Assembly: GCA_038087875.1 (NCBI GenBank) | Contig: CM075989.1 | Coordinates: forward strand, 13,394,001-13,458,000 | Origin: Malacoraja senta | Taxonomy: Eukaryota | Length of the DNA: 64,000 bases | Direction of reading: 5' to 3' | Shown here: piece by piece, positions 3,765-61,338 of the stretch | Position numbering within the stretch: position 1 is the first letter of the stretch | Layout of the letters: the number at the start of each line of letters is the position of its first letter | Translations under genes and position numbers: made by a program | Notes under the pieces: model-generated | Seen by the model: only the letters and a program-made list of their open reading frames with translations | What the model was told of the DNA's origin: nothing | The model's database searches: none

Positions 3765-5139
3765 CTGCTTCCCAAAGACAGAATGATAGAAATAAAAAAG
3801 CAGTTAGTCAATCATGATGAGGGCAAAGGAACAATCTGCAAAAACCCTTTTTCTGTGTCACTGGCAGGACAAAAGCACTTCAGAAACTTTCCCCGCAAAA
3901 GCTGCAATAATTGGCTTTGCATTTTGAAAGCTAACAGAGCAAAACTGAATGTGCAACAGAGACTTACAATAAGACATTGTGAATCTGTAGAATTCTCCGC
4001 TACAGAAGGCAATGGAGGCCAATTCACTGGATGTATTCAAGAGAGAGTTGGATATCGCTCTCAGGGCTATCGGAATTAAGGGATATGGGGAGAAAGCAGG
4101 AACGGAGTACTGATTCTGGATGATCAGCCATGATCATATTAAATGGTGGTGCTGGCTTGAAGGGCTGAAGGGCCTACTCCTGCACCTATTTTCTATGTGT
4201 CTATGACATACAAAATGAATATGTCAAGAAGCAAATAATTTGTTTTTTTATTTCAAATTTTGCAAATCCCACTATCGTACGTTATTGCACTGTTTCAGAA
4301 CATTCAAACCATTCAAGCAAAATTAAAAGACAACTTTCAACTCAGGAAACGCATGTAATTTTGATACTAAACCCGAGAAAGTAGTTAGTTACTAAAAATG
4401 AACCCAAACTAAAAATGAATCAATCTTCTAAGAGGGAAGAAATGAGATAATTGGACCACAATGCAGAAAAAGCACTCGGGTTGGAAAACCCTTTCTCTAT
4501 TACTCTGACCAAATTATGGAATATCACGATGTCAGATTAAAATAATTAGAGAACATTTTAAAAATTTAATTTTAGTATCTTGTACTGTTTCAATGAAGCC
4601 CAACAACAGCTCATCAGGTGCCTGGGCACATTGCAACCTACGAGACTCAATATCAGGTCCAATATTACAGATGGCTCACTTTTTTTCTCTTTGTATTAGA
4701 ACTGGCCAGATCACTTTTGAAGATGGTGAAATGTTCTAACCTGAATGGTTGTCTAAAACAGATCACTGGGATATTTAAAGAGGAAGTATATTATTTTTTT
4801 GAAAGATTGGCGAATTGAGGACTATGGTTGGGGAGGCAGGCTTGAGAGGACGTGGCCTACTCCTATGTTCTTATGCTCTCATCCTTGGGCCATTCTACAA
4901 AATTGTTTGCAACTGCTATCACTTTTTGCACATGGATCATTGCAAGCTGAATTTGGTCAGGCTTCTACCAATATCAGGACCTAGTAAATAGACCATTTTT
5001 CTCCACATGGCAAATAAAAAATAAATAACTTCCACAACAAAGGAAAACATTCATATCTCAGTGCCACAAAAAAATAGATCTGGAACCAGTGACTGAATGT
5101 GTCAATGGAACATAGAATTATAATATCATAGACACAAAC

Positions 5140-6310
5140 AGCACAGAAACAGCTGATCATCCTTTTGGCCCAACTCGCCCGTGCTGACCATAAATACCTA
5201 ACTACGCTAGTCTAATTTGTCTGCATTAAGATATCTACTGCTTTCCTATCCAAATGCCTTTCAAACCTTGTAATTCAATGTGCTTTCATCGACCCATCTG
5301 GCAGCTTCTTCACAATGTATTATCCACATCTGCCACTGCTCCAAACTTTCCAGTTGATCTATGTCCCATTGTATCTCTAGATAATATTTGCGATCTATGA
5401 CTCCAACAATTTTTTTATAATCTGCAAACTTGCTAATCAGACCCGCTATATTTCCATCCAAGTCATTTATAGATATTATTACAAAAGGTCTAACCACCAA
5501 TGTGTAGGAAAGAACTGCAGGTGCTGGTTTAAATCGAAGATATAGACACAAAATGGTGGAGTAACCCAGCGGGACAGGCAGCATCTCTGGAGAGAAGGAA
5601 TGGGTAACCAGTCTGAAGAAGGGTCTCGACCCAAAATGTCACCCATTCCTTCCCTCCAGAGATGCTGCCTGTCCCGCTGAGTTACTCCAGCATTTTGTGT
5701 CTATCTTTGGTCTAACCACCTGAGAGTCAGAGAAACACCCATCCATCATCACCCTATGCCTCCTATCGCTAAGCCTACTTTGTATTCAGTTTGCTCAGAC
5801 CCTTTGTGCTTTAACCACCAATGTGTAGACAGACCTGCCTACCGTGCGGGACTGTCAAAAGACTCGCTGAGATCCATGGAAACCACATCATTCATCAATC
5901 TTCCTCGTCATCTAAAAAAACTCAGATTTATGAGACATGATTGCCTCTGCACAAAAACCTACCTTAATTAGTCCCTACCTTTAAAGTGACACTTCCTTCT
6001 TCCTGATACAGAGATGCTCACATTTTAAATACACGGAATCTTCAACAACTTTCCAGCCACTGAGGCAAGGCTCGCCAATCTGTAGTTTCTAGGCTTGACC
6101 CTTCTTCACTTCGTGAACAAAGGGACTATGTCAACTATCCGACCATCTTCTAGTCCCTATCCATTACGGCCAAAAATGCAAAAATCTGCATTAGAGCCCC
6201 ACCAACCTCCAGGCTTGTTTTCCTTAGCATTTCAAGATAGATCATTACAGACCATAGGGATTTATTGACCCTGATGCTGTCTAATATTTTTAACACTTCC
6301 TCCTTTCTAA
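5140..6310 (-). mobile_element. CR1-like LINE fragments (decayed)
   Basis: INDLDGNIAGLISKFAD motif and typical CR1 RT remnants; interrupted by the PLE hairpin. Confidence 0.7.
5499..5708. mobile_element. Palindromic PLE-derived short element
   Basis: About 75-bp inverted arms (GACACAAAATG...GGAATGGGT / ACCCATTCC...TTTTGTGTC) with a decayed hammerhead core at 5613-5640. Flanked by a GGTCTAACCACC direct repeat (5487-5498, 5709-5720). Confidence 0.8.
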
Positions 6311-8190: not shown

Positions 8191-8349
8191 TGCTTCCCAA
8201 TGCTAAAATACAAATGTAGACACCGTCAATTAATCCAACCCATTTGTGCTATATGTTCACAAACTAACCTCCACTTTAAAGAGAATACTTAACGCACAAG
8301 GTTTGGGGGAAATATACTGACATAGAGAGGGATTTGGCTAACTAACAAG

Positions 8350-8693
8350 AAACTCCTTCGATGGAGTCGAGGGGGGAGGTAAAGGGACAGGTGTTGCATC
8401 TCCTGCAGTTGCAGGGGAAAGTACCTGGGGAGGGGTGGTTTGGGTGGGAAGGGACGAGTTGACCAGGGAGTTTCGGAGGGAACGGTCTCTGCGGAAAGCA
8501 GAAAGGGGTGGAAATGTGAAGATGTTGCCAGTAGTGGAATCCCATTGGAGGTGATGAAAATGTTGGAGGATTATATGCTGTATGCGACGGCTGATGGGGT
8601 GGAAGGTGAGGACAGGGGAGACTCTGTCGTTACGAATGGAAGGGGGAGGGAGAGTAAGAGCGTGCTGCGGGATTTCGAGGAGACCCTAGTGAG
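8350..8693 (-). mobile_element. Penelope-like internal fragment
   Basis: PSPGTFPCNCRRCNTCPFTSPLDSIEG; homologous to 23200-23455. Confidence 0.75.
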
Positions 8694-11129: not shown

Positions 11130-11335
11130 TGAAAATGCAGTAACTCAGTGGGTCAGGCAGCATCTCTAGAGAAAATGGATACATGACGTTTTGGGTCAGA
11201 ACCCTTTCTTCAGATGAAGGGTCCCGATCTGAAACTTCACTTATCTATTTTCTTCAAATGCTGCCTGTTCCACTAAGTTACTTCAGCATTTTGTGTCCAT
11301 CTCTAGCATAAACCAGCATCTGCAGTTCCTTTTTT
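11130..11335. mobile_element. Palindromic PLE-derived short element (decayed)
   Basis: Same arm sequences, with two opposed decayed hammerhead cores at 11185-11240. Confidence 0.7.
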
Positions 11336-19094: not shown

Positions 19095-19750
19095 CCTGCA
19101 CCAAGATGGCGGCGGCTGCGGCCTCAGCGCGCGGCCCGGGTCACGTGCGCCCACCTTCGCCCTCCGCGGTCCGCCTTGCGCTGTATGCCAGCGCGGGGCC
19201 TGCGGCACGCGGCGCCCGTCCTCAGCCCGAACCCCACACCGACCCGGAGCCAGAGACGGCGGTCGAGGTAGGTGAAAGTCGCAGTGAGAGGTAGATGCAG
19301 GCTCCTGCTCCCCGCGCGGGCGGCCTGAAGCTTTTCCAGGTCACGCTGAGGCGATGGCCGACCGGATGTGGAAGTTGATCCCTTTCTCTGCGCCTTAAAC
19401 AATAATCGACTTCCCCCGGAAAGGCGCCGGGCCCCGGGCCGCCGCACGCTTCCTGTTGCCCCGAGTGCGGCGAGAGCAAGGCTACGGCTAATACCGTCGG
19501 GATGTGTCCTGTCCCGGGTTGCTGCCTGTCCGGGCCTGGAGGCCCGGGCGTTCGCTGCATTCTCCGTCCGTGGGCCAGGGCCGAATCTCGACTCGCCCGC
19601 TATGAGTCGGGCCCGGGCGGGAAGGGAAAGGGGCACAGGGTAGTTGTAGAGCTGGGTCAGTGCGAACCCGGGGGTTGACAGACAGAAGCCCTTCCCCAAA
19701 TATCCAGGTCGGGCAGAAATAGGCAGCGTTGCCCGCTCTCAATCAGTTCA
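19095..19750 (+). promoter_or_regulatory. GABPB1: CpG island / promoter and first exon of GABPB1
   Basis: Very GC/CpG-rich. YY1 motif CAAGATGGCGGC (19102-19113), E-box CACGTG (19142-19147), several ETS cores (19362-19455). Candidate donors after 19267 (GAG|GTAGGT) and 19339 (CAG|GTCACG). Confidence 0.8.
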
Positions 19751-20750: not shown

Positions 20751-20924
20751 GTAGACACAAAATGCTGGAGAAACTCAGCGGGTGAGGCAGCATCTATGGA
20801 GAGAAGGAATTGGAGACATCGCCAATTCCTTCTCTCCATAGATGCTGCCTCACCTGCTGAGTTTCTCCAACATTTTGTGTCCACCTTCAATTTTACCAGC
20901 ATCTGTAGTTCTTTCTTAAACAGG
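20751..20924. mobile_element. Palindromic PLE-derived short element
   Basis: Near-perfect hairpin 20751-20885, flanked by GAGACTTT(C/A)GGGT (20740-20752, 20925-20937). The hammerhead core is missing from the loop. Confidence 0.8.
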
Positions 20925-21598: not shown

Positions 21599-22024
21599 AG
21601 TAATCCATCTCTCTCTGTAGAAACAAGGAATTGCAGATGCTGGTTTACCAAAAAAGAGTAATTCAGTGGGCCAGAAATGCTGCCTAATCTGCTGAGTTAC
21701 TGCAGCACTTTGTGTCTTTTCCTCGCTACACAATGTTGCAATGACCTCCTTCAGCACTGATTCCATTAGCACCTGCATTCCAGGGAACAAATCCTGGGTA
21801 CCAGTGGATACACTGATCATTATCTATAGCAGCACATTTCATTTAGGTGGTTAAAAAAGCCATGAAGGATGCTATCCTCAATTAATCAAGGCAGTGTACT
21901 AGAACTAGGGAGTTATACTAGAAATCTATACAATACCAGTTAGACCACATCTTGAGAACTGCACAGTTCTAATAATCACATTACAATACATGTATAATTT
22001 CACTGAAAAGAATGACAATCGTAA

Positions 22025-22312: not shown

Positions 22313-22540
22313 ACACACTAAGGATAGCTGGAATAAACTTGTATTTCCAAATTAGTGTATTACATTTAGTGCTCACAATGTGGCCTGCTGTTGGGGAAGA
22401 AACCACACAGATTAGATGACAATTTTGCTGAAAACCTATTAATTTCACTGGACATGATGAGTTTCCCCTTGCCTGCAACCTTAAATCTTCACCCACTCCT
22501 ACTATTCCAATGAAGCCCAAGATAGGCTTGAAGAACGTAG

Positions 22541-23455
22541 TGTGTAGGAAGGAACTGCAAATGTTGGTTTAAACTGAAGATAGACACAAAAAGCTGGAGT
22601 AACTCAGCGGGACAGGCAGCATCTCTGGAGAGAAAGAATGGGTGACGTTTCAGGTCGAGACCCTTCTTCAGACTGGATAGGGATAAGGGAAATGAGAGAA
22701 AAAGATGATGATGTGAAGAGATAAATAACAATTAATAAAAAAGATGCAAAAAAGTAACGATAAAGAAAACAGGCCATTGTTAGCTGTTTGTAGGGTGGAA
22801 AAGATAAGCTAGTGTGACTTGGGTGGGGGAGGAATAGAGAGGGAATGCCGGGGCTACCTGAAGTTAGAGAAATCAATATTCATACCACAGGGCTGTAAGC
22901 TGCCCAAGCAAAATTTGAGATGCTGTTCCTCCAATTTGCGTTTAACTCTGATAATGGAGGAGACCGAGGACAGAAAGGTCTGTGTAGGAATGGGAAGAAG
23001 AATTAAAGTGTCCGGCAACCGGGAGATCAGGTAAGTTCAGGCGGGCTGAGCGAAGGTGTTCTGCACAATGACCGCCCAGTCTACGTTTGGTCTCGCCGAT
23101 GTATAAGAGTCCACATCTTTAACAATGGATACAGTAGATGAGGTTGGAGGAAGTGCAAGTAAATCTCTGCCTAACCTGAAAGGACTGTCGGAGTCCCTGG
23201 AAGAGGGAGGAGATATAACGTCAGGTGTTGCATCTTCTGCAGTTGCAGGGGAAGGTACCAGGGGAGGGTGTGGTTTGGGTGGGAAGGGATGAGTTAACCA
23301 GGGATTTGCTGAGGTTCTCTGTGTAAGGCGGAAAGGGGTGGAGATGGGAAAATGTGGCTAGTGGTGGGATCCCATTGAAGGTGGTGAAAATTTTGGAGGA
23401 TTATGTGTTGTATGCGACAGCTGATGGGATGGAAGGTAAGCACTAGGGGGACTCT
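22541..23455 (-). mobile_element. Penelope-like retroelement 3' fragment (degenerate GIY-YIG endonuclease plus terminal repeat)
   Basis: The minus strand reads PGTFPCNCRRCNT ... NLIYCIHC*RCGLLYIGETKRRLG..AEHLRS ... EEQHLKFCLGSLQPCGMNIDFSNFR* (stop at 22854-22856). This is a Cys-rich linker plus the bipartite GIY-YIG motif typical of PLEs. Confidence 0.85.
22644..22671 (-). ncRNA. Minimal type-I hammerhead ribozyme core in the PLE terminal repeat
   Basis: CTGAAGA-A-GGGTCTCGACCT-GAAAC-GTC: CUGANGA box, stem II GGGT/ACCT, GAAA box, GUC cleavage triplet. Confidence 0.72.
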
Positions 23456-25540
23456 AGTTAGCAAGACACAGTTAGCATGTCAGGTCATTGACACTTCACG
23501 CCACTCCAAATGCATTGTCACATGGATTACTTTGGTTTCCATCTTATGACAGAAGTTCCTACTCCACACTTTCCTTTCTTAAAAAAAACTTTTTTGCCTC
23601 AATTGTTATCAAGTATTATTAATGCCTAAAAAAATATTCGTACGGTTTGTTTCAATTGCCATTTGCCAAAGATAATTCCCCAGGCAGCATTTGGAGAGAA
23701 AAATATTTTGCCTCATATCTGTTTTAAATGGGCATCGCCTTAATTTGAACAGATATCACATTGCTTTTTTTCTCACAAGAGGAAACACCCATTCCATCTT
23801 CTGAGGGTCTTGACAGGGATCATCTCTCTTTCTTTTAAACTCTAATAGACACATGTCTAATCAGTCTAAGCTTTCCTTACTGTACATCCTGTCAATTCTG
23901 TCTATCTTTTAAGAAATACGAGGATATTTTGTGTAAATGGATGGCAGCTGATTGAAAATAGATGATATAGTTATTTTCTGTAGAATTATATATTAGTAGT
24001 ATATTTTCATCAGGGCAGAATTGCAATGCTACTGTGAGACGTACTACTAATCTCTCCATTTAACTCAGTAAGGATGATGTTCTTATGTTATCACATAATT
24101 CTCGTGTATTTTTTGTTGTCTGTCAAGATCTGGTGACATCAGTAAGCTTCAATAGTGTGAATTTGATAGATGTTATTTCATCAGTGTGTGCTACAAGTGT
24201 GATGCTGGATATACATTTATTTTCCTCTTAGTATTGATTATTGGGGTACTGACATTTCCTCAATTACATAGAGAGATAGGAAGAGATTTGAACAACAACA
24301 TATTCAGAAAATGGCTTTGAAGAAAGAGTTTTCAGAGGAATTCCCTGACGCTTGTTTTGATGTTTGGAGCCTAAGCCTCCAATAGATATTCAAGGTGCCC
24401 AGTTTGAAGCAAGTTGTAAACCTGTGGGGAAGTTACAGAGAGACCCAATAGTTTTAAAACTGAGACAATGTTAGATCAGGAGCAATTGTCGATCAGTAAG
24501 AATCTGACCTACAGTCAGTTAGCATGTTTGAAGTTTTGGAGAAGCTCTAATTTATCGATATCTGAAATATTTGTTAATGATTGTAAAATCTATAATCTCA
24601 TGATTGAGGTATAGAAACATAGAAAAATGGGGACAAGAGTAGGCCATTCGGCCCTTCGAGCCATTCAATATGATCATAGCTGATCAGTACTCCGTTCCTG
24701 CTTTTCCCCCCATGTCCCTTGATTCCTTTAGCCCGAAGAGCTAAATCTAACTCCCTCTTGAAAACATTCAGTGAATTGGCCTCCACTGCCTTCTGTGGCA
24801 GATAATTCCACAGATTCACAACTTTCTGGGTGAAGAAGTTTTCCTCGTCTCAGTCCTAAATGGCCTACCCCTTATTCTTAAACTGTGACCCCTGGTTCTG
24901 GACTCCCCCAACAAGGGGAACATATTTCCTGCATCTAGCCTGTCCAATCCTTGAAGTATTTTATATGTTTCTATATGATCCTTCTAAAATCCAGTGAATA
25001 CAAGCCCAGTCGACCCATTCTTTAATCATATGTCAGTCCCGCCATCCCAGGAATTAACCTGGTGAACCTACGCTGCACTCCCTCAATAGCAATAATGTCC
25101 TTCCTCAAATTAGGAGATCAAAATTGCACACAATACTCCAGGTGCAATGTCACCAGGACCCTGCACAACTGCAGTAGGACCTCCTTGCTCCTAAACTCAA
25201 AGCCTCTTATTATCTGAAAATCCTCAGATAATAATCTGCCTACCTGTTCTTGCCACCAAAGTGGATAACCTCACATTTATCCACATTATACTGCATCTGC
25301 CATGCATCTGCCCACTCACCCAACCCATCCAAGTCACCCTGCAGCCTCTTAACATCCTCATCGCAGCTCACACTGCCACCCAGCTTTGTGTCATCCACAA
25401 AGTTGGAGATGTCACATTTAATTCCCTCGTCTAAACTGGGGTCGCAGCACAGAGCCTTGTAGCACCCCACTAGTCACTGCCTGCCATTCTGAAAAGGACC
25501 CGTTAATTCCTACTCTTTGCAGTTCTCTATCCATGTCAAT

Positions 25541-25930: not shown

Positions 25931-26295
25931 ATCCATGTCAATACCCTACCCCCAATATCATGTGTTCTAATTTTGCTCACTAATCTCTTGTGTGGGACCT
26001 CGTCAAAGGCTTTTTGAAAGTCCAGATACACCACATCCACTGGCTCTCCCTTATCCATTCTACTTGATACATCCTCAAAAAATTCCAGAAGATTAATCAA
26101 GCATGATTTCCCATTCATAAATCCATGCTGACTTTGACCGATCCTGTCACTGCTTTCCAAATGCGCTGCTATAACATCTTTGACAATCGTCTCAAGCAAC
26201 TTCCCCGCTACCGATGTACGGCTAACCGGTTTATAATTCCCCATTTTTTTTCTCTCCCTCCTTTCTTAAAAAGTGGGGTTACATTGGCTCTCCTC

Positions 26296-28657
26296 ATTTA
26301 ATAATTTGAGACGATTTTTTAACATAATGTATTCACATAAAGTGGAAAAGGAAGACTTATCAGTTATATCTTTGGATGCAGAGAAAGTATTTGATCTGGT
26401 AGAGTGGCAGTATTTATACTTAGTACTCCAAAAATTTAATATGGGAGATAATTTTATGAGATGTGTGAAATTATTATATGATAAACCAATGGCAAGAATA
26501 TTAACTAATAATATGTTGTCTCCAAAATTCCAATTATCACGAGGCAATAGACAGGGATGTGTTTTATCACCCCTGCTATTTGCCCTTATGATAGAGCCTT
26601 TGGCTGAAAGGATAAGAACACATCCGAATATTCAGGGATATAATACTAATGACTCTAATAACAAAATTTCATTATATGCAGATGATATACTTTTATATAT
26701 TAGAAATTCAGAAATGAGTATCCCGAATTTACTAAACGTAATAGAGGAATTTGGCTCTTTTTCTGGATATAGAATAAATTGGAATAAAAGTGAAATTATG
26801 TCATTACAGCCCCAGAAAGCGAATCATCTATTAAAATTTCCATTTAAAATTGCAACAGAAAAATTTAAATATTTAGGTATTCAAGTTACTAAAAGATATA
26901 AATCATTATTTAATGCTAATTTTAATCCTTTATTAAATAAATTGAACGCTCTGATTAAATTTTGGAAAACGCTCCCACTATCATTAATTGGCAGAATAAA
27001 TGCTATAAAAATGATAGTTCTACCACAAATAATATATTTATTTCAATCCATACCAATATATATACCAAAATATATATTTTTTAAACTAGACTCTAATATT
27101 ACTAATTTTATTTGGGACTACAAAGCACATAGGATTAAAAGAAATCATCTGTGTAAACCTAAAGATGTAGGGGGACTTGCACTGCCTAATTTTTTATATT
27201 ATTATTGGGCAGTGCATATTAAGAATATCATTTATTGGTTGGACTGCCCTTCTCAACAGATGGAATGGATAAGAATGGAGAAAGAGGACTGTTTTCCGTA
27301 CAATTTAGCAACGATCCTCTTTTCCCCGATAAAGTTGAATAATACATTATATAAGAAGAATCCAATTATACATAATATAATTCGAATTTGGAAACAAATA
27401 AAATTAACTTTAAAATTAAGGAACTTATCATCATTAACACCAATAGTGAATAATCCGGTATTTAAACCATCTTTTATGGATAAAACATAGACAATGGGAA
27501 AGATTGGGAATTAAAAAGGTGGGGGACATGTATGAAATGGGAAATTTATTATCATTTCAACAATTAAAATCAAAATTTAATCTGAATAATAACCAATACT
27601 TTAAATATTTACAGATATGTGACTTTATAAAAAAATATATACCAAGACTACAGAGCATAATGATAGACCCACTGGAAGAAGCAATGAATATTAAGGCAGA
27701 CTCACAAAAATTAATATCATATTTATATAATAGTATTCTTAATAGAGAATTGCCATCAACAGAGGCAATTAGAGAAGACTGGGAAAAAGAATTAATGGCA
27801 AAAAATTCTAAAGAAACATGGGAGAGGTATTTGATATATATACATAAATGTTCGATTAACGCTAGACATAATTTAATTCAATTTAAAATATTACATAGAT
27901 TATATTATTCAAAAGTTAGGTTGAATAAATTTTATTCAAATATTTCTACCATCTGTGATAAATGTCTTTCTCAAAATGCCAATATCACACATTCTTTCGT
28001 TTCTTGCACAAAACTTCATGGATTTTGGTGTGATATATTTGATATATTCACTAGTTTATTTAAGATAAAAATTGAACCTAATATGGAAATGATTATCTTC
28101 GGAGTAATAGGAGATGGAAACAAATTAAATATATCCCAAATTTCATTTTTAAATTATGGTTTAATAACAGCAAAAAAAACTCATACTTAAATTTTGGAAA
28201 AATGCTACTATACCAACACTCAAAATGTGGATTGGTAATATGTTGGAAACTGCCCACTTGGAAGAAATGAGACTCCTCCTAATAGATAAACAAGACCAAT
28301 TCTTAACGAGTTGGTCTCCATTTATTGACCTTGTGGATTCATGTGGTGCAATAGTATCGTAAAATTAAAAAATTCTGGGTTTGGGCGAAAAATGATTAAG
28401 AATATAAAAAAGCATCGACTTGTGGCAAGGGAGAATCTCCTTTCTGCTTCACTTTCTTACTTATTTCTTTTCTTTACCTCACACTCACTAGACTTTCCTT
28501 TACTCTTCACTACTTCTTTCTTTCTCATTTCTTTCTAAAAAAAATTTTAAAAAAGGAAGTTGTACAAAGAATGTTTTAATAATTCTGGGAACCTGTAAAA
28601 AGGTACCATCAAAATGTAATGTACTTCTAATAAATAAAATATAAAAAAAAACAAAAA
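26296..28657 (+). mobile_element. L1/Tx1-like LINE, 5'-truncated ORF2 (RT plus CCHC knuckle)
   Basis: [28 protein letters not shown] and CDKCLSQNANITHSFVSC motifs; frameshifts near 27490 and 28175; AATAAA plus A-tail; 15-bp TSD ACATTGGCTCTCCTC (26281-26295, 28658-28672). Confidence 0.92.
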
Positions 28658-38195: not shown

Positions 38196-38280
38196 ACACT
38201 AGAAAGATTATGGTACACTATGAAAAATAACTTTGTAAATAAAGTATTTATTATTAATGGGTACAATGAGCTATCATTTG

Positions 38281-38570
38281 TGTAGGAAGGAACTGAAGAT
38301 GCTGGTTTAAACTGAAGATAGACACAAAAAGCTGGAGTAACTCACCGGGCCAGGCAGCATCTCTAGAGAGAAGCAATGGATGATGTTTCGGGTTACTTTT
38401 TTGCATATCTTTCATTCGTTGCCTTTGTCTACATCATTGTCTATATCTCTCGTTTCCCTTTTCCCTAACTAGTTGGAAGGAGGGTCACTAACCCGAAACA
38501 GCACCCATTCCTTCTCTCCAGAGATGCTGCCTGTCCGGCTGAGTTACCCCAGCTTTTTGTGTCTATCCAC
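38281..38570. mobile_element. Palindromic PLE-derived short element
   Basis: Inverted arms; flanking direct repeat GAGCTATCATTTGTGT (38268-38283, 38571-38586). Confidence 0.8.
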
Positions 38571-41764: not shown

Positions 41765-44292
41765 GTTAGAAAGCAACTGCTGCTCATTCTTTAAGATGTA
41801 TGACTTACCGAAATAATATGAGATTTGTCAAAAGTGAAAGTGTTTTGTCAAAAGTGCTATGTAGCCTGCAAAGACACAAGCAAAACATTTCACCAGCAAA
41901 ATGAACTCTTCTGCAATTTCAATTTTAATTAGATTTTATTTTTTAATATAAGAAACGCTCAACAATAGTTCTCACTTCAACAATGCAGAGAGGTTTTACA
42001 AAGGTATTTGTGCTGTAATGCCCATAATGCTATCTCCTTCATATTTCCTTCATCAATCCTTTCCTTCACTACTGATGCATCCTTAAGAAGTTAAGGATGT
42101 AATTGCTTCCACAATCAAGGTTAGCTGATGGAAAGCAATATATTTTCTTTGAGAAGGTACCTCAGCTTTCACAAACCAGCAAAATCTTGTATGTTTGCGC
42201 TGTCTCTGTAAACGTTCTATAAACCACCATTCCAACATCATTTCTGTCCAATATGTTAGGCTAATCTCAGCTAATACTAACTTTCATTGTTGCAAATATT
42301 ATAAGAAATGAATCGTAGATTCCTAAAAATCTGTTTCTACAGCATAAAAAATGGATTATGGCCCACCTCAACCATGCCACCTGTGATACCTATCTACGCT
42401 AATCCCATTTGCCTGTGTTGTGGTTCAAAACCATAACTTTGCCCTCAATATTAGCAAAACTGAAGACTTGGTTTTTGACCTAAGGATGCGAAGGGGTGAA
42501 CAAAATCCTGTCCTCATCAATGGATGCCTGTGGAAATGGTCAACAGCTTCAAGTTCTTAAGCATCACTATCATCTGAAACGCAACCTGATCACACTGATT
42601 CAGTGATCACATCAGTGTATTTACTTTCTTTGCCATCTGAGAAGATTTGGCACTATTTTTATGTCTTTATTAAGTACCAAATGTCTATCTAATTGGTATT
42701 GTGATAAATGTCAATGGCACAACTCTATTTGTAATGCTCAATGTTCTGGGTGTGTGTGAGAACTATAACTAATAGTATGCATGGAAGAGAGAAGATTGAA
42801 AATCAAAAACACTGCAGATGCTGGAAATGTAAAATAAACCAAAATGCAATAATAGATAGTGGGTCAAGCAGCATCTGTGTAAAGTGAAAGTTATTATTTC
42901 AGGCCTTTCATAAGAAAAGAGAAGATTGTTTATTCACCAATTGTTATGGTTTCCATATTTTATCAATTACCTTCTTTGTGGATGTGCATTGAATGATATG
43001 TTATATTTTCATCAAGAATGAAATACTTTGAAAGGCAGGAATATAACACTTTATAAACATTTTTGCCTTATTTGGTGCTTTCTTCAGTAGCCTGGGTAGA
43101 TTGAGTCTGTAGAAGGGTCTCGACCCAAAACGTCACTAATTCCTTCTCTCCAGAGATGCTGCCTCTCCCGCTGAGTTTTACTCCAGTTTTTTGTGTCTAG
43201 GTTGGTAGATTATCAGATCGAACCTATGTTTGCTAATCTACAGCAGCATGTGTGATGTTGAAGTATATTATAGATAGAGTTATAGAAAATATTCTTCATC
43301 TCCAGGCACAATATTCTTCATCTCCAGGCACATCATCCAATGTGATGTAAAATAATATAATTTCCATTAATTCTGTTAAAATTCTCAATGTTTTAATTAT
43401 CTTTCTCTTTGGCGTTTGCATTTGAACATTCTGCAATATTTTTGGTCATCTTAAAAGGGTAAAAATGACCAACCAAAGTAAACTGTGGTGAAACTTAACC
43501 AGAACGTTTGTGTAACTGTAAAACTCTCCTTAAAGTTACTAGCTCCCTGGGTTCATGCCATCTTCAACCATAAGCATTCAATTAAACATTGAAATCCCCA
43601 GGCACATCGGAATATTTTTGTATCAGTAATCAAATGAAACCCTGGCATGGTTTAGTGGGTAGGAATATGGTGGTGATGGTGAATGCTGTGTAGATGAAAA
43701 TAATGTTAATTATGTTATACTGAAACAGTCAAATACTAGGATTTTTGAAACAGGATAACTGGCTTCTTTTGTGCATATGGATAGAAAAGGTTAGGGGAAT
43801 ATAGACTAGGCACAGGCAAGTGCGACTAGCTCTGCTCGGCAACTTGGTCGCAGTGAACAAGTTGAGCCGAAGGGACTTTCGTGCTGTAGAGTTCTATGAG
43901 TTTAAGACTGTTTTGTTTCTAGGTTCATGGGTACCAATGCAGTAAGTTGCTTATCCTTCACAGGAAAGGCTGCCTGTGACAGTTGAAGTGCAAATGATCG
44001 TTCAAGACAGTGATGGGCTTACCATGCGCCTCTTGGTTTCAGTCAAAATGATGACAACTTGATGTACCTGCCTGTTGGTAGTGGGGTGAGATTGGCTGGA
44101 GGGTAGCTGGGATCTGCATTGAGGATGGGTTGCCTGAACTAGTGTTCTCCTGGAATTAGTGTGGTGGGGGGAAGGGTATATTTACTTAGGTAGCCCCTGA
44201 TGTGGGTGGCAATGTTGGGCTTGGTGATTCTTTGTTGCAATTTTATTTTAACGTCTTAGTTCGTATATACTGTATGTCCAGTTAATCCTTAA

Positions 44293-47370: not shown

Positions 47371-47746
47371 TCAGCCAAATCTTAGGCTTACCAAAATCAA
47401 CTGTTTGGAACAAAGAGACCACTGGTGAGCTTACTAATCGCAAAGGGACTGACAGGCCAAGGAATATCTCCACAGCTGATGACAGAGTAATTCTCTCTAT
47501 AATGTAGAAAAACGCCGAAACACCTGTCTGGCAGATCAGAAACACACTTCAGGAGTCAGGTGTGGATTTGTCAATGACCACTGTCCACAGAAGACCCCAT
47601 GAACAGAAATACAGAGGCTACACTGCAAGATGCAAACCACTGGTTAGTTGGAAAAATAGGATGGCCTGAATGCCAAGAAGTACTTAAAAGAGCAACCTCA
47701 GATCTGGAAAAAGGCCTTGTGGACAGATGAGATGAAGATTAACTTA

Positions 47747-51116: not shown

Positions 51117-51292
51117 GTAGACAAAAATGCTGGAGAAACTCAGCGGGTGAGGCAGCATCTATGGAGCGAAGGAATAGGTGATATTTCAGGTCCGTCACCT
51201 ATTCCTTCGCTCCATAGATTCTGCCTCACCAGCTGAGTTTCTCCAACATTTTTGTGTACCTTCGATTTTTCCAGCATCTGCAGTTCTTTCTT
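51117..51292. mobile_element. Palindromic PLE-derived short element inserted in a Tc1 copy
   Basis: Hairpin 51117-51262; TSD AAGCAT(A/T)AGCTAAAG (51102-51116, 51293-51307). The sister Tc1 copy near 54455-54470 has a single, empty site. Confidence 0.85.
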
Positions 51293-51808
51293 AAGCATTA
51301 GCTAAAGATTGCTGCAATACAGGCCTGGCATAGCATCACTAGAGAAGACACCCAACAACTGGTGATGTGCATTAATCACAGACTTCAAGCAGTCATTGTA
51401 TGCAAAGGATATGCAACAAAATACTAAACATGACTACTTTCATTTACATGACATTGCTGTGTCCCAAACATTGTGATGCCCTGAAATGGGGGGGGGGGGG
51501 GGGGGGGAGGATAAACACTGCTCTGATTTCTATATGGTGAAACCAAAATGGATAAACATAGCCTTTATTAAAATCCGACCATGTGTACTTTAAGCACATG
51601 TGATTTTTTTTCTATTACAAATCTCAAATTGTGGAGTACAGAGGCAAATAAATAAATGATGGGTCTTTGTCCCAAACATTATGGATGGCACTGTGATTGA
51701 CGGGTGAAAGCACAGACTTGGAACATTCAGGAGTTAGCTGGTGCTTAAGTGAGTGACTCCTTTGTATTTTTGCCCTCTGACTCCTCCGACCTACTTTAAA
51801 AAGAGTCT

Positions 51809-52842: not shown

Positions 52843-54086
52843 GTGTCATATCCAGTTTGAGAGTGAAAAATTGAAGTATGAAACTAATCTCTGAGACTTA
52901 ACTAATGATAATTGCAAACGTATAAAGGCAGATGTCTGACAGCGGCTGTGGTGGATGTGATCTTACATAATTCTCTAGATTCTGGAAAGATCTCAGCAAA
53001 TTGGAGAATGTGACACCCTTTTCCTGAAAAGAGAGAGAAATTTGTCTGACATTTTCCATTGGGATACTACTAGAATCCATTATTAAGTATCAGTAGTCAC
53101 TTAGAAAAGCAATATGTAATCAAGCAAGGTCCACATGATTTCAGAAAGGAAATATCTTGTTTGACTCTTTCATTGGACCTCTTTGAGTATATTCTGACTA
53201 AGGTGGATAAAAGGAACTAATAATTGCGATGTAGTTGAATTTCTGGAAGGTGCATGAAGAATGTTGCACAAAGTAAAAGCTCGTGATGTTGGGTGTAAAA
53301 TTATTAGCATAGATACAGGATTGGCCAAAATGGAGCTGGAAAGATTGCATAATTTTCAACTTGGCTATTTTAGTCTGCTCCAAAACAGCTTATTTCATTT
53401 CCTTGTGTCTCATCATCTGTGGCTGTGTTCAAAGATATAAAACTTTGCAGAATAGCGTCCAGTGCTTCCATAGATACTCTTCATAGTTTTCTGTATCTCC
53501 CTTGTCGCAAGCTTTTCAATGCCCATAATGGGTGGCCAGTAATTATCTAGCACTACCTTATTCCTGTACAATGTACTGACACAGACTCAAACTCATGTGC
53601 TGCAGGGAGGCTGCAGAGAAAGCTATAAAATTATATAACACTGAAGAATATGATATCCAGTCCAGAAGGCTGCAACGTACCGAGATGGAACATGAGGTGC
53701 TAGTCCTCAAGCTTACAAATATGTTCTGATTGTTCTTTATTTCAACTGCATTTCTCCAATGTGATTAAATGAATACTCAATAATGGCCTCTGGTAACTTT
53801 ACCATCGCAGGTGTAAGACAAGTTAGCATATCATCACCAGTTTTATACCTCTTCCCTTCTTTGAATAGGAATGCAACATTTACAGTCCTCTGATGGATGT
53901 CGGCAACTGTACGGTGATGGTCCTTGGCAGAAGCAACAGAAAGGTTGTACAGTCTAAAGAAATCTTTCCAGTGAATGAAGGAAGAGAGGGACTGCGGGTA
54001 GCTCATTCGGGGTTAGCAGATGAGATGGTTAAACAGGATACTTAGCTGTGGAAAAAGAGCCATTGAATACAGAAACAGGGTAGTTA

Positions 54087-57310: not shown

Positions 57311-59852
57311 GTTTAAAAGGAACCTGAGGGGCATGTTTTCACATGGAGGTTGGTTTGTACATGGAAAGAGCTGCTCGAGGAAGCTGTAGAGACAGATATA
57401 ATTGCAATGTTTAAAAAAACATTTGGTCTAGTACGTGGATAAGAAAGGTTTAAAGGGATTTTGGTCAATCATAGGCAAATGGGACGAGCTGAAGTAACAT
57501 CTTGGTCGACACAGATGAGTTAGGCTGAAGGGCCTGTATCCATGCTGCATGACTCTATTACACTAATTGGTGAAACCATAGAATTTTGGGAGGAGGAGAT
57601 TTCAGTCCTCACTCATGCACACATTTAGCTCTTGGGGCTAAAGGAATCAATGGATATGGGGAAAAAGCAGGAACAGGGTACTGAATTTAGATGATCAGCC
57701 TACTCCTGCACCTATTTTTCTAAGTTTCTATTCCAACAGAGGACATGAATTGTCAGCTCTTTCCTTTAATACCTAGGGTGTTAATGTAATTGCAAAGCCT
57801 TCCTTGCTGTCCCAACTATGTGGGACGTGTATTTAATTCAATGGTCGATATCTAGGGGTAAGCAGAAGGCACTGCTTTGAAACCGACTTTCATTGTAAAC
57901 AGTTTTTAATTTTTCATTTTTAAACAGTTAAAATAAGCTTTTGTTTAAAATCAACATTCTGCTTGCAGAATTTGACTTTTAAATAGAATCTATTTGCTGA
58001 ATTTACACTGATTTTAGTGCAGTTCCTGTTAAAATTGGCTACAGAATATTTAAAACCCCTCTAATTTCCCTTTATCTAGTAGCTAAACTAGAATGACATT
58101 ATATTATCTATTTGGAATAATAAACACAAAATTCTTACTAATAAAAGAACAATATAATATAATGGGTACATTCACAATGACTAGTCTTGCCCCATGACAC
58201 TTTTGAAAAACCTAATATGTTAATTTGTGATTCTATTGCTGCTTTAGGTTCACAGTGAGATGTTAAAACACTGCTGGTTAATCTAATGGAAAAGGAGCAT
58301 GAATTAGCGCAAACACAGTGATGTACTTACAAGAATGGAGAAAATTAAATGCCAAGATAGACCAAAAGCCACAAGGAAGGCCAATAAAATATTTTAAATT
58401 AAAACGTAGACATATTTGCATTTCAAATTACTGTTGTACTTGGAGCAAGTGTATAAATGTGTATAAACTTGAAATGTGTAGCCCAGCTTCTCAAATGTCC
58501 CTTCAATTCAATACTTCTGTGTAACAAAAATACCATAAATTATGTTCATGTGAAAAGCCCGAGATGCTAAGATGGTCGGTTAGAGTGGAAAAAAATCTAT
58601 ATTTTTATTTCTCTGGATAAGGATAGGCTAACTCAAAAAATTATTTTAATAAACAAAAAAAAGTTCAGAATTCACATTCTTGTGGATGTTGTTTACTTAT
58701 AGAGACTAATTTAGTAACTGATCCAAACAAAAGATTATTTAACAAAAAAATACAGTTTCAACTTGCTTAAATAATAATTCTGATGCCGGGCTCTGTCATT
58801 GTGGGAGAGGAGGCAGAAATGGCCTTATTCAAATGAAATGAATGAAAAAAATGTCAGCAATTTTTTAGTTTGTTTTGACCTGATATAATTCTGTAAGCTT
58901 GTTTCCAAATTCCAATCAAGGGCTTAACGGTTCTTCTGGTAGAAAGCTTTCTTACAAATTTCCTACATCTGTTAGGCATTTAGCATTAAGTATTTTGACT
59001 TTTGAAATACATTGCATGTATAAATGAGGAGAGGGACAGGGTCGAGAGCTAGGAAAAATAGCAGCTACTTCCTCTATCCTGAGAGGATGCTTTTGGAATT
59101 TGAAATAAGTACCAGGATATATTAAGGTGTCTGTTTCACATAGGGTCTATTCTGCATTTCCAATAATCCATTAAAATCTCATTCACATGGGTGTAGCATG
59201 GTTTCTAGCTTGCAATTCTTTACAAAAACAAAAAAAGTTGATGTGTTTCTGTTGGGAAAGTCAATAACAACGTTTTTTTTCCTTTCTTATTGCTTATCAT
59301 ATTTAAATCTGAAGACTAAAATCTTTTCTTGCTGTTTATATCTGCAGCAGTCAGAGATTTGTCACTCTGTCTTTTTCTTTAAGGAGCCATGCCAAACTGT
59401 CCCTTGCCAATTAATATCTTTATTATAATGTAAACCATCCTAGGCTCCTGTGGTTTTTGAACATAGACTATTTTTTACTTTTGTACTTGCTTAGAGTCTT
59501 ACAGCTTTTTGACAGATAAATTTCACAGATTCTCATAATATATGAAAATATGTTCACATTTCCTATATTTATGGATTATATAAATGATCATTTATAGATG
59601 GTCACAATTGAAGAGTGTGGAATAAAACAAATTTTAAGATATCTTTGAAGGGAATAGACACGATATTTCGAGTCAGGACCCTTCGTCAGACTGAGTTCCT
59701 CCAGCACTTTGTGCTTTGCTCAAGATTCCAGCATCTGTAGTTTCCTGTGTCTTCTTTACTACCTTGTTCATCCAAATTGAATAGGATTTTAGACACAAAA
59801 TGCTGGAGTAACTCAGCGGGACAGGCAGCATCTCTGGAGAGAAGGAATGGGT

Positions 59853-59880
59853 GACGTTTCAGGTTGAGACCCTTCCTCAG
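59853..59880 (-). ncRNA. Minimal hammerhead ribozyme core (PLE-derived)
   Basis: CTGAGGA-A-GGGTCTCAACCT-GAAAC-GTC within PLE terminal-repeat copy 59790-60070. Confidence 0.65.
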
Positions 59881-60979
59881 ACTGATGTCAGGGGAGTGGG
59901 CGGGACAGAGATAGAATGTAGTCGGAGACAGTAAAACGTGGGAGAACTGGGAAGGGGAGGGGATGGAGAGAGAGGGAAAGCAAGAACTTCCCAGTTCTTC
60001 CACCAGTCATATTATCACTTCAAATATCTCTCTCCATCTGCTCCCCCTTCCCAGTTCTCCCACCAGTCTTACTAATAATATCCTGTGTTGTTTCATGTTG
60101 CTGCCTTGAAAGACGCTGGCAACAATATTTTTCTGCTGACTTCACTTGAAGTTGCTTGGGGCTGAGTGCCTCTTTCAGAGAAACGTTGATTTTCTTAAAA
60201 TTCTTTTTTTTTAAATTTGGGTGTTGCTGAATGTTGAGTTTTATTTCTCATCTAATTTCTCATGGAATCTTGGACCATTGCTGACATTCTGGTGGAGGTG
60301 CACCACAGTGCTGTTGGGAAGGGAGATCCAGGTGTTAGACCCAGCGACGATGAAGTATCAGTGGTATATTTCCAGCTCTGGATGGTATGAGACTGAAGAA
60401 GTCATTAGCTGGTGTGCTCCCCTGCATTCCGTGTCCTTCACAGGGAAGGAAGTCAGAGGTTTGGGAGGTGCTGTTGAAGGAGGCTGGGTGAATAACTGCA
60501 ATGAATTTTGTAGATGGTACACACTGTTGCCACTGTGTGCCAGGGGTAGAAGGAATAGGTAGGTGGTTGATAGGGTGTGAATCTGGCTGAATGCTTTATC
60601 CTGCTGTTGGGTTTCTTGGTTATTGGCGCTGCACTCAGTGGATGTTCTTCCTTCGTGCTCCTGAGTTGTAAATGCTGGAGAGACTTTAGGAGTCAGGAAA
60701 TCAGCCATTTACTGCAGGAAATTGGTCTCTGATCTGCATTTGTTGTGTTTATGTGTCTGGTCCAATTGATTTCTGGTCATGAATGCCCTTAGCACATTGA
60801 TGATGGGACTTGGCGATATTGATGGCATTGAATGTAAAGAGTAGGTGGTTAGAATCTATCTTGATAGACACAAAATGCCTGAGTACCTAAGTAGGATAGG
60901 CAGCATCTCTGGAGAAGGAATGGGATGTTTCAGGTTGAGACACTTCTTCAGACTGAGTTGGAGCCTGAAGAAGGGTCTC

Positions 60980-61007
60980 CTGAAGAAGGGTCTCAACCTG
61001 AAACGTC
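60980..61007 (+). ncRNA. Minimal hammerhead ribozyme core (PLE-derived)
   Basis: CTGAAGA-A-GGGTCTCAACCT-GAAAC-GTC within palindromic element 60865-61090. Confidence 0.65.
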
Positions 61008-61338
61008 ACCCATTCCTTCTCTCCAGAGATGCTGCCTGGCCCGCTGAGTTACTCTGGCATTTTGTGTCTATCTTTAGTGTAAACCAGCAAATGCAGTTCC
61101 TTCCTACACAGAGAATCTCTCTCGTTGGACGTGCAAATGTTTCTTACCACTTATCAGTCAATGTCTGAACATTGTGTAGATCTTGCTGCATGCAGACATG
61201 GACTGCTACATTTGCTGAGGAGTTGCTAATGGAAAGAACATTGTGCAACCATCAGCAAGCATTCCTAACTGTGATTTTAGGAAGGACAGGTCTTTGACAA
61301 AACAGCTGAAAATGGCTGTACGTAGAACTCTGTCCTGA

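Follow-up and report, generated by a model that had tools for sequence, protein, structure and literature searches.

A dead, 5′-truncated Penelope-like retrotransposon of the endonuclease-bearing kind, likely Neptune-type, probably occupies 23455-22541 on the minus strand of the window (the whole 64,000-nucleotide stretch of Malacoraja senta DNA that was analysed). It ends in a pseudo-LTR with a minimal hammerhead motif, for which no active fold is predicted in this copy, and the hairpins of the window are likely insertion products of the same family. The direct observations behind this reading are the protein remnant, the motif, two 3′ ends, target duplications and head-to-head arms. On present evidence the locus is an ordinary dead retroelement whose motif has already been published. 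The asymmetry between the long and short arms of the hairpins fits the pair of internal priming sites observed in vitro with one anole element, and the skate assembly would offer many thousands of insertions in which two-site priming could be tested in vivo; the same insertions could test the need for a Penelope hammerhead once helix I is reduced to 2 bp.

Protein homology and motifs identify 23455-22541 (minus strand) as the decayed, 5′-truncated element, its protein carrying a Neptune-type Zn linker, GIY-YIG and CCHH. The parts of the protein relic are:

23310..23455, minus strand: 5′-most ORF remnant, upstream of the Zn linker (RVPLVLTFHP...), from tblastn to the RT+EN homologs P0005/P0006
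23221..23253, minus strand: CX2-5CxxC Zn-finger linker (FPCNCRRCNT), from homolog comparison
22854..23142, minus strand: decayed GIY-YIG endonuclease, from profile and motif residues
23142-23095, minus strand: GIY-YIG core, LIY..CxxC..YIG
23091-23074, minus strand: GIY-YIG residue R
23064-23053, minus strand: first GIY-YIG residue H
23013-23002, minus strand: second GIY-YIG residue H
22934-22923, minus strand: GIY-YIG residue E
22886-22875, minus strand: GIY-YIG residue N

The relic is collinear with the last ~210 aa of proteins that carry reverse transcriptase (RT) and endonuclease (EN) domains and then ends in a stop. A search among longer proteins gave 5 matches from 467 candidates (best E 9e-40); the best comes from the skate Rhinoraja longicauda (an NCBI gene model, 69% identity), and others carry RT and GIY-YIG domains. 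Starting from a gar protein match, 110 full-length relatives were gathered, and a profile built from the C-termini of 90 of them matches 23319-22942 at iE 2e-38 and the last piece of the endonuclease at iE 0.049. The pre-linker remnant has a profile iE of 5.9e-12, with the HMM match extended into unrelated flank, and Pfam GIY-YIG on the relic alone reaches E 0.087, under the cut-off. The original prediction had called this a Penelope-like GIY-YIG relic and proposed comparing the ORF remnant with GIY-YIG proteins of Penelope-like elements (PLEs); the tblastn and profile matches to RT+EN homologs bear it out.

Damage to the relic comprises four in-frame stops (23445, 23403, 23223 and 23121) and two frameshifts (near 23315 and near 22946). 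The stops at 23445 and 23403 lie upstream of the ~23315 frameshift and are therefore outside the homologous frame. The stop 23223-23221 sits at the position of the homologs' last linker Cys, and the stop 23121-23119 interrupts the endonuclease between the two Cys that lie between GIY and YIG (LIYCIHC*RC..LYIG..EH..GH), a CCHH arrangement; the terminal TAG is at 22856-22854. The linker motif CX2-5CxxC is present in 104 of the 110 full-length homologs. A C-terminal EN with CCHH and a CX2-5CxxC linker leads to Neptune or Nematis in 10.1101/2021.04.23.441226. The Neptune-type linker is common to Nematis and Naiad, and since the relic has no RT, clade placement depends wholly on the linker, by which the family is likely of Neptune type. 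The element is truncated at about 23455 (contig cover stops in the bin 23422-23457). Compared with the Neptune-clade EN+ PLEs described there, the relic shares the linker Zn finger (FPCNCRRCNT*) but lacks RT here, and the microsatellite insertion suggested for Neptune is not seen at the sites in the window.

Other remnants of this kind lie in the window. A second relic of the family at 8345-8649 (minus strand) has the pre-linker region and an intact Zn linker (~8431-8400), with no endonuclease or pseudo-LTR after it. A much older GIY-YIG-like remnant at 22337-22453 (plus strand) faces the relic's tail about 90 nt off; its matches are weak, with E 9e-5 against a single homolog and iE 0.17 against the profile. 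Old short remnants resembling the endonuclease C-terminus are found at 53646-53732 (minus strand) and 4601-4654 (plus strand). Outside the window, in P0003, the Rhinoraja longicauda NCBI model "receptor-transporting protein 3-like", a 3CxxC zinc ribbon is fused to an open C-terminus of Neptune-type linker and GIY-YIG; this may reflect an error of gene prediction or the genuine exonisation of an endonuclease.

The hammerhead motif proper (22671-22644) begins 183 nt past the stop of the decayed ORF, on the same strand:

22642..22673, minus strand: minimal type-I hammerhead motif, from the descriptor and comparison with PMC4209133 Fig. S3/S7

It reads CTGAAGA (22671-22665), an extra A (22664), GGGTCTCGACCT (22663-22652), GAAA (22651-22648), C (22647) and GTC (22646-22644), and the predicted cut falls between 22644 and 22643. 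The order given in the original prediction, CTGAAGA-A and then GAAAC-GTC downstream of a decayed GIY-YIG ORF, is exact on the minus strand, and the letters agree with its account of both boxes, a GUC and a stem III that is a loopless ACGT palindrome. Helix I, whose length the original prediction leaves unmentioned, has 2 bp (U22672-A22643 and G22673-C22642), followed by an A x C mismatch; its 3′ strand begins ACC in another subfamily also (loose ends at 22631). Helix II has 4 bp and a CUCG loop, with a bulged A after CUGAAGA. Helix III consists of A15.1-C15.2/G16.2-U16.1 only (ACGU, 22648-22645).

The motif recurs in the window well beyond chance. A 28-nt pattern with at most 3 mismatches has 6 matches in the window against 0.00 expected (100 shuffles). 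With the published descriptor of minimal hammerheads (min-HHR), re-coded from the PMC4209133 supplement, there are four core-intact motifs (22671, 59880, 59689 and 60980), three with a helix I of at least 2 bp and none with 3 bp, so that the published 3-bp minimum gives 0 descriptor matches in the window; 100 simulated sequences average 0.13 core-only matches and give 0 with a 2-bp helix I. The covariance-model search proposed earlier found no Rfam match at the gathering threshold over the whole window, nor at E<=10 over 22400-23600, and the exact degenerate hammerhead pattern occurs 0 times in metagenome contigs. Related repeats of a different family at 47476 (plus strand) and 55158 (minus strand) have CTGATGA ... 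GAAA at hammerhead-core spacing, with no GUH.

In Cervera and De la Pena (2014; PMC4209133), min-HHRs share with the relic CUGANGA plus an extra base, G10.1, GAAA-N-N-U-H, the palindromic 15.2-16.2 with no loop 3 and a U-rich upstream sequence. The relic has both descriptor boxes, CUGANGA(+N) and GAAANNUH, and the 15.2-16.2 palindrome without loop 3. Its helix I of 2 bp is shorter than the 3-7 bp of the descriptor. Helix II, 3-7 bp with G10.1-C11.1 in the descriptor, is 4 bp in the relic, where the pair 10.1-11.1 is G.U at a decaying CpG; half of the 12 window arms retain C at 11.1. Where 11.1 meets G12, the CpG reads TG in 6 arms, CA (G12 lost) in 3 and CG in 3, and the U at 11.1 is neutral CpG decay. 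The same source has published min-HHR examples with G.U at this pair, as well as manually found 2-bp helix I variants in D. virilis, Culex and Oikopleura; those stems are G-C only as against U-A/G-C in the relic, which resembles them. It also lists 5′-truncated PLEs with a single 3′ motif, and its Table S1 and Fig. S3 include no cartilaginous fish.

The predicted fold speaks against activity in this copy. The first box and the 5′ strand of helix II pair with sequence beyond the cut site, so that the CUGA box and helix II are hidden in the predicted structure; the competing pairing has a probability of 0.97-0.999 and the hammerhead helices at most 0.001, and the energies are -2.0 kcal/mol for the hammerhead form and -11.6 kcal/mol for the competing one, computed with folding programs that ignore the hammerhead core and tertiary contacts. 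Two copies co-fold via the competing helix, and the minimum-energy form is not the hammerhead in any of the five copies folded. The idea that the competing hairpin is a selected switch was rejected (z -1.13; 30 of 200 shuffles fold equally well). The relic holds a single motif and no tandem partner. Because of the 2-bp helix I, the competing fold and the missing tandem partner, activity of the relic copy is doubtful, and the models make it likely inactive as a ribozyme. The original prediction of a minimal, dimer-type hammerhead ribozyme therefore stands as to the published minimal, palindromic-helix-III kind of motif, while a working dimer ribozyme is questionable on the helix I length, the hidden CUGA box of the model and the single motif. 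A poor predicted fold is no proof of inactivity, because 2-bp helix I variants have been published and the anole ribozyme cuts only with protein. In PMC4209133, min-HHRs show no cleavage as monomers and low cleavage as dimers, and in PMC11167929 the ribozyme of the anole element cuts only when protein is added. The motif would have been inherited from ribozyme-bearing ancestors, and any cutting in the family would depend on a second copy with which the ACGU palindrome can pair, and probably on the element's protein as well.

Around and beyond the motif lies the pseudo-LTR (pLTR), which has two 3′ ends:

22675..22853, minus strand: 3′ untranslated / upstream part of the pseudo-LTR, 80% pyrimidine over 22760-22675
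22579..22641, minus strand: rest of the pseudo-LTR, to the short 3′ end (~22576-22582)
22541..22578, minus strand: "tail" of ~38 nt, to the long 3′ end at 22541, from contig ends, window arms and PMC11167929

Public runs of nine coded organisms contain words of the stretch, and contigs of 4 of the 21 listed runs were aligned to it (1 DNA run, X4, and 3 of guessed RNA type). The family is very abundant: the DNA run alone contributes 342,808 aligned pieces. Each of the four runs shows 3′ ends accumulating at 22541 and at 22577-22584, beyond which the contigs carry unrelated A/T-rich DNA. Two 3′ ends about 38 nt apart, inverted truncated copies and a variable target-site duplication (TSD; found at sites other than the relic's) correspond to the Penelope architecture outlined in 10.1101/2021.04.23.441226 and PMC3846280, namely an inverted truncated pLTR, one 30-40 bp tail and a TSD. 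Ribozyme cutting as the cause of 5′ truncation was considered and found no support from the contig ends listed or the window arms.

Twenty window arms align to 22760-22541 and form 8 head-to-head hairpins and 4 solo pieces, among them:

5501..5707, no strand: hairpin, long + short arm, 13-nt target duplication
11132..11331, no strand: older hairpin, short + long arm, no duplication found
20752..20922, no strand: hairpin from a different subfamily with its centre on the helix III palindrome, 13-nt duplication
21616..21717, no strand: old hairpin, truncated downstream of the motif
38279..38567, no strand: hairpin, one arm reaching relic 22758, duplication up to 18 nt
43104..43199, plus strand: solo copy, 96 nt, relic 22674 to 22581, 10-nt duplication
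51117..51293, no strand: hairpin, 15-nt duplication
59641..59750, no strand: old atypical hairpin, the one of 8 without a long + short pair
59790..59884, minus strand: solo copy, core intact, different pyrimidine-rich upstream sequence
60863..61110, no strand: hairpin, 11-nt duplication, first box duplicated (15 nt) at the junction

The other seven hairpins each have one arm reaching 22541-22550 and a second stopping at ~22577-22589 (for two arms the end was placed at the target duplication and not at the local alignment end). Target duplications of 10-18 nt with a score of at least 8 flank 6 of 10 insertions, a score that 28 of 1000 random pairs reach; no such duplication surrounds the relic (score 5). 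Some hairpin arms are from other subfamilies. As judged from these alignments, the window hairpins are head-to-head pseudo-LTR ends of the relic's family. The original prediction had linked them to a ribozyme-bearing PLE parent. The hairpins do represent the family's 3′ end, and "parent" is valid for the family and not for the relic copy, because the relic is itself a dead insertion and some arms derive from other subfamilies. At the junction of the hairpin at 60863-60980, about 12 nt preceding the initiator/acceptor site look like the end of the ORF, which could reflect a spliced copy or chance.

A mechanism for such insertions can be drawn from work on Poseidon of Anolis carolinensis (PAc; Frangieh et al. 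2024, PMC11167929), where the tail is traced to two internal RT start sites and both target strands are cut and extended. By extension from that in vitro work, the protein of the skate element would nick both strands of AT-rich DNA, and reverse transcription would start inside the element RNA at two sites ~38 nt apart (22541 and ~22580), each nicked strand being extended from one of the two. Joining of the two cDNAs head to head would then give a hairpin of unequal arms, one long and one short, flanked by a 10-18 nt duplication. A weaker step is that the RNA may begin at 22674, in which case starts at the pseudo-LTR copy near the RNA 5′ end would give cDNAs of 94-134 nt; cDNAs that short would explain why short copies swamp the ORF-bearing ones. 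Like the skate family, PAc has two internal start sites that define the tail, inserts into AT-rich targets and places a hammerhead where pLTR and ORF meet. It differs in that Poseidon is without the linker Zn finger that the relic has, and in that cleavage by the PAc ribozyme is demonstrated whereas the relic's motif is known from its letters and predicted fold. The PAc ORF starts at stem II, while the relic's subfamily has AAG where the older copy at 11210 has an in-frame ATG.

A single frame of the pseudo-LTR is open from 22674 on and, by its sequence, may represent the ORF's first codons. Its QHLQFL aligns with an SHxxFL motif found in 49 of 110 homologs, and 20 of 500 shuffles score equally. 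Among longer proteins, this frame is contained only in two unrelated gene models with the repeat. These are P0119 and P0120, predicted proteins that include the frame (SLKKG...), one of them an ODAD3-like skate gene model, and both are likely repeat capture by gene prediction.

The position 22674 is also where copies begin:

22670..22676, minus strand: CCAGTCT, initiator-like with A+1 = 22674, also a possible 3′ splice site (CAG|), inferred

We take the letters around 22674 to fit the initiator consensus, with A+1 = 22674. At this position 1331 contigs of the DNA run stop and continue into unrelated A/T-rich DNA (agreement 0.32), a pile seen for that one of the 4 runs among the 24 listed of 2774 loose-end rows, and the first consensus letter past it is G on the element's strand. 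The solo copy at 43104 likewise starts at 22674, after one G outside its 10-nt duplication. A TATA-like site (TATAT, 22703-22699) lies 29 nt upstream of 22674 in most family contigs and in the window copy at 38392; it is lost in the relic. An extra G is a mark of cap copying in L1 (PMC11702581), and TATA and initiator-like sites have been noted in rotifer pLTRs (PMC3846280). Position 22674 is thus possibly a transcription start just before the ribozyme. Tentatively, and with the odds rather against it, the skate family may be transcribed from a TATA + initiator promoter with +1 three bases before the hammerhead core, so that the capped RNA would open with the ribozyme and have room for only a 2-bp helix I; internal RT starts 94-134 nt from the cap, one per nicked strand, would yield very many tiny solo or hairpin insertions, some with a cap-derived G, and what preserves the boxes today would be their role as promoter and first codons and not ribozyme function. 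If this is true, the insertions are a genome-scale fossil record of two-strand priming. In the literature searched, which leaves out most subscription papers and Repbase/Dfam, no paper was found on a start site at a vertebrate PLE hammerhead or on this skate family.

The same pile could arise from the 3′ end of a retained intron together with a subfamily boundary, and not from a transcription start, a reading that we consider possible and rather unlikely. It would account for the tract of 80% pyrimidine that ends in CAG directly before the motif, for a donor-like CAG|GT overlapping the ORF stop, and for the loose ends at 22675, where contigs of 4 of 4 runs continue, on the element strand, into pyrimidine-rich stretches from other subfamilies; in D. 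virilis, moreover, the Penelope intron end maps to helix I. However, splicing predicts ends at 22672, and the 1331 contigs that stop at 22674 run into unrelated A/T-rich DNA. There is also no skip from 22672 to ~22859 among 15 listed of 794 joints, which shows only that such a skip is not dominant. A separate question is whether the family motif, short as its 2-bp helix I is, still works as a ribozyme with the help of dimerisation and protein, cutting a tandem precursor RNA after GUC. The intact core letters of the relic and three other window copies, the loopless palindrome and bulged A of the published type, and the other subfamily (loose ends at 22631) that varies the loop letters and keeps the 3′ strand of helix II all favor this, as does the protein-assisted cleavage demonstrated for the anole element (PMC11167929); contig joints that go back 94-135 nt may be tandem units. 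Yet helix I, just U-A and G-C, is under the descriptor minimum, the competing fold dominates in every copy folded, the cut site 22643/22644 is absent among the 24 listed of 2774 loose-end rows, and few window arms start within 4 nt of it (5608, 20817, 51193 and, in a weak alignment, 62244), so we regard a working ribozyme as doubtful.

An improbable alternative for the hairpins and short copies is that they are a non-autonomous family mobilised on its own, akin to SINEs, MITEs or retrozymes, or that they come from fold-back self-priming on antisense RNA. Short pieces do far outnumber ORF pieces in 4 of 4 runs (counted as contig pieces, which give no copy number). Non-LTR retrozymes, non-coding hammerhead units that 10.64898/2026.07.22.740005 proposes to be pLTR-derived, are reported there for one chondrichthyan genome; self-priming has been proposed for rotifer Penelopes in PMC3846280, and some hairpin centres in the window fall on short palindromes (20813-20817 and 11210-11214). 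But all 8 window hairpins differ in junction and arm length, which argues against a separately copied hairpin family, and 7 of the 8 show the asymmetric long and short ends expected from two priming sites. Retrozymes, moreover, occur as tandem arrays, as that source describes them, whereas the window copies are solo or inverted pairs, most with core letters lost: the window contains no tandem array of the unit and nowhere two or more tandem units each with a complete hammerhead. Two-site priming by the Penelope-like family itself is therefore preferred as the source of the hairpins.

Elsewhere in the window, 19100-19720 is a G+C-rich island with CAAGATGGCGGC and, on the plus strand, a possible first exon (MAAAAA...); if this is a gene start, the relic would lie antisense in an intron. 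At 26270-28190 (plus strand), open frames of 406 and 246 aa look by eye like the RT of a non-LTR retrotransposon.
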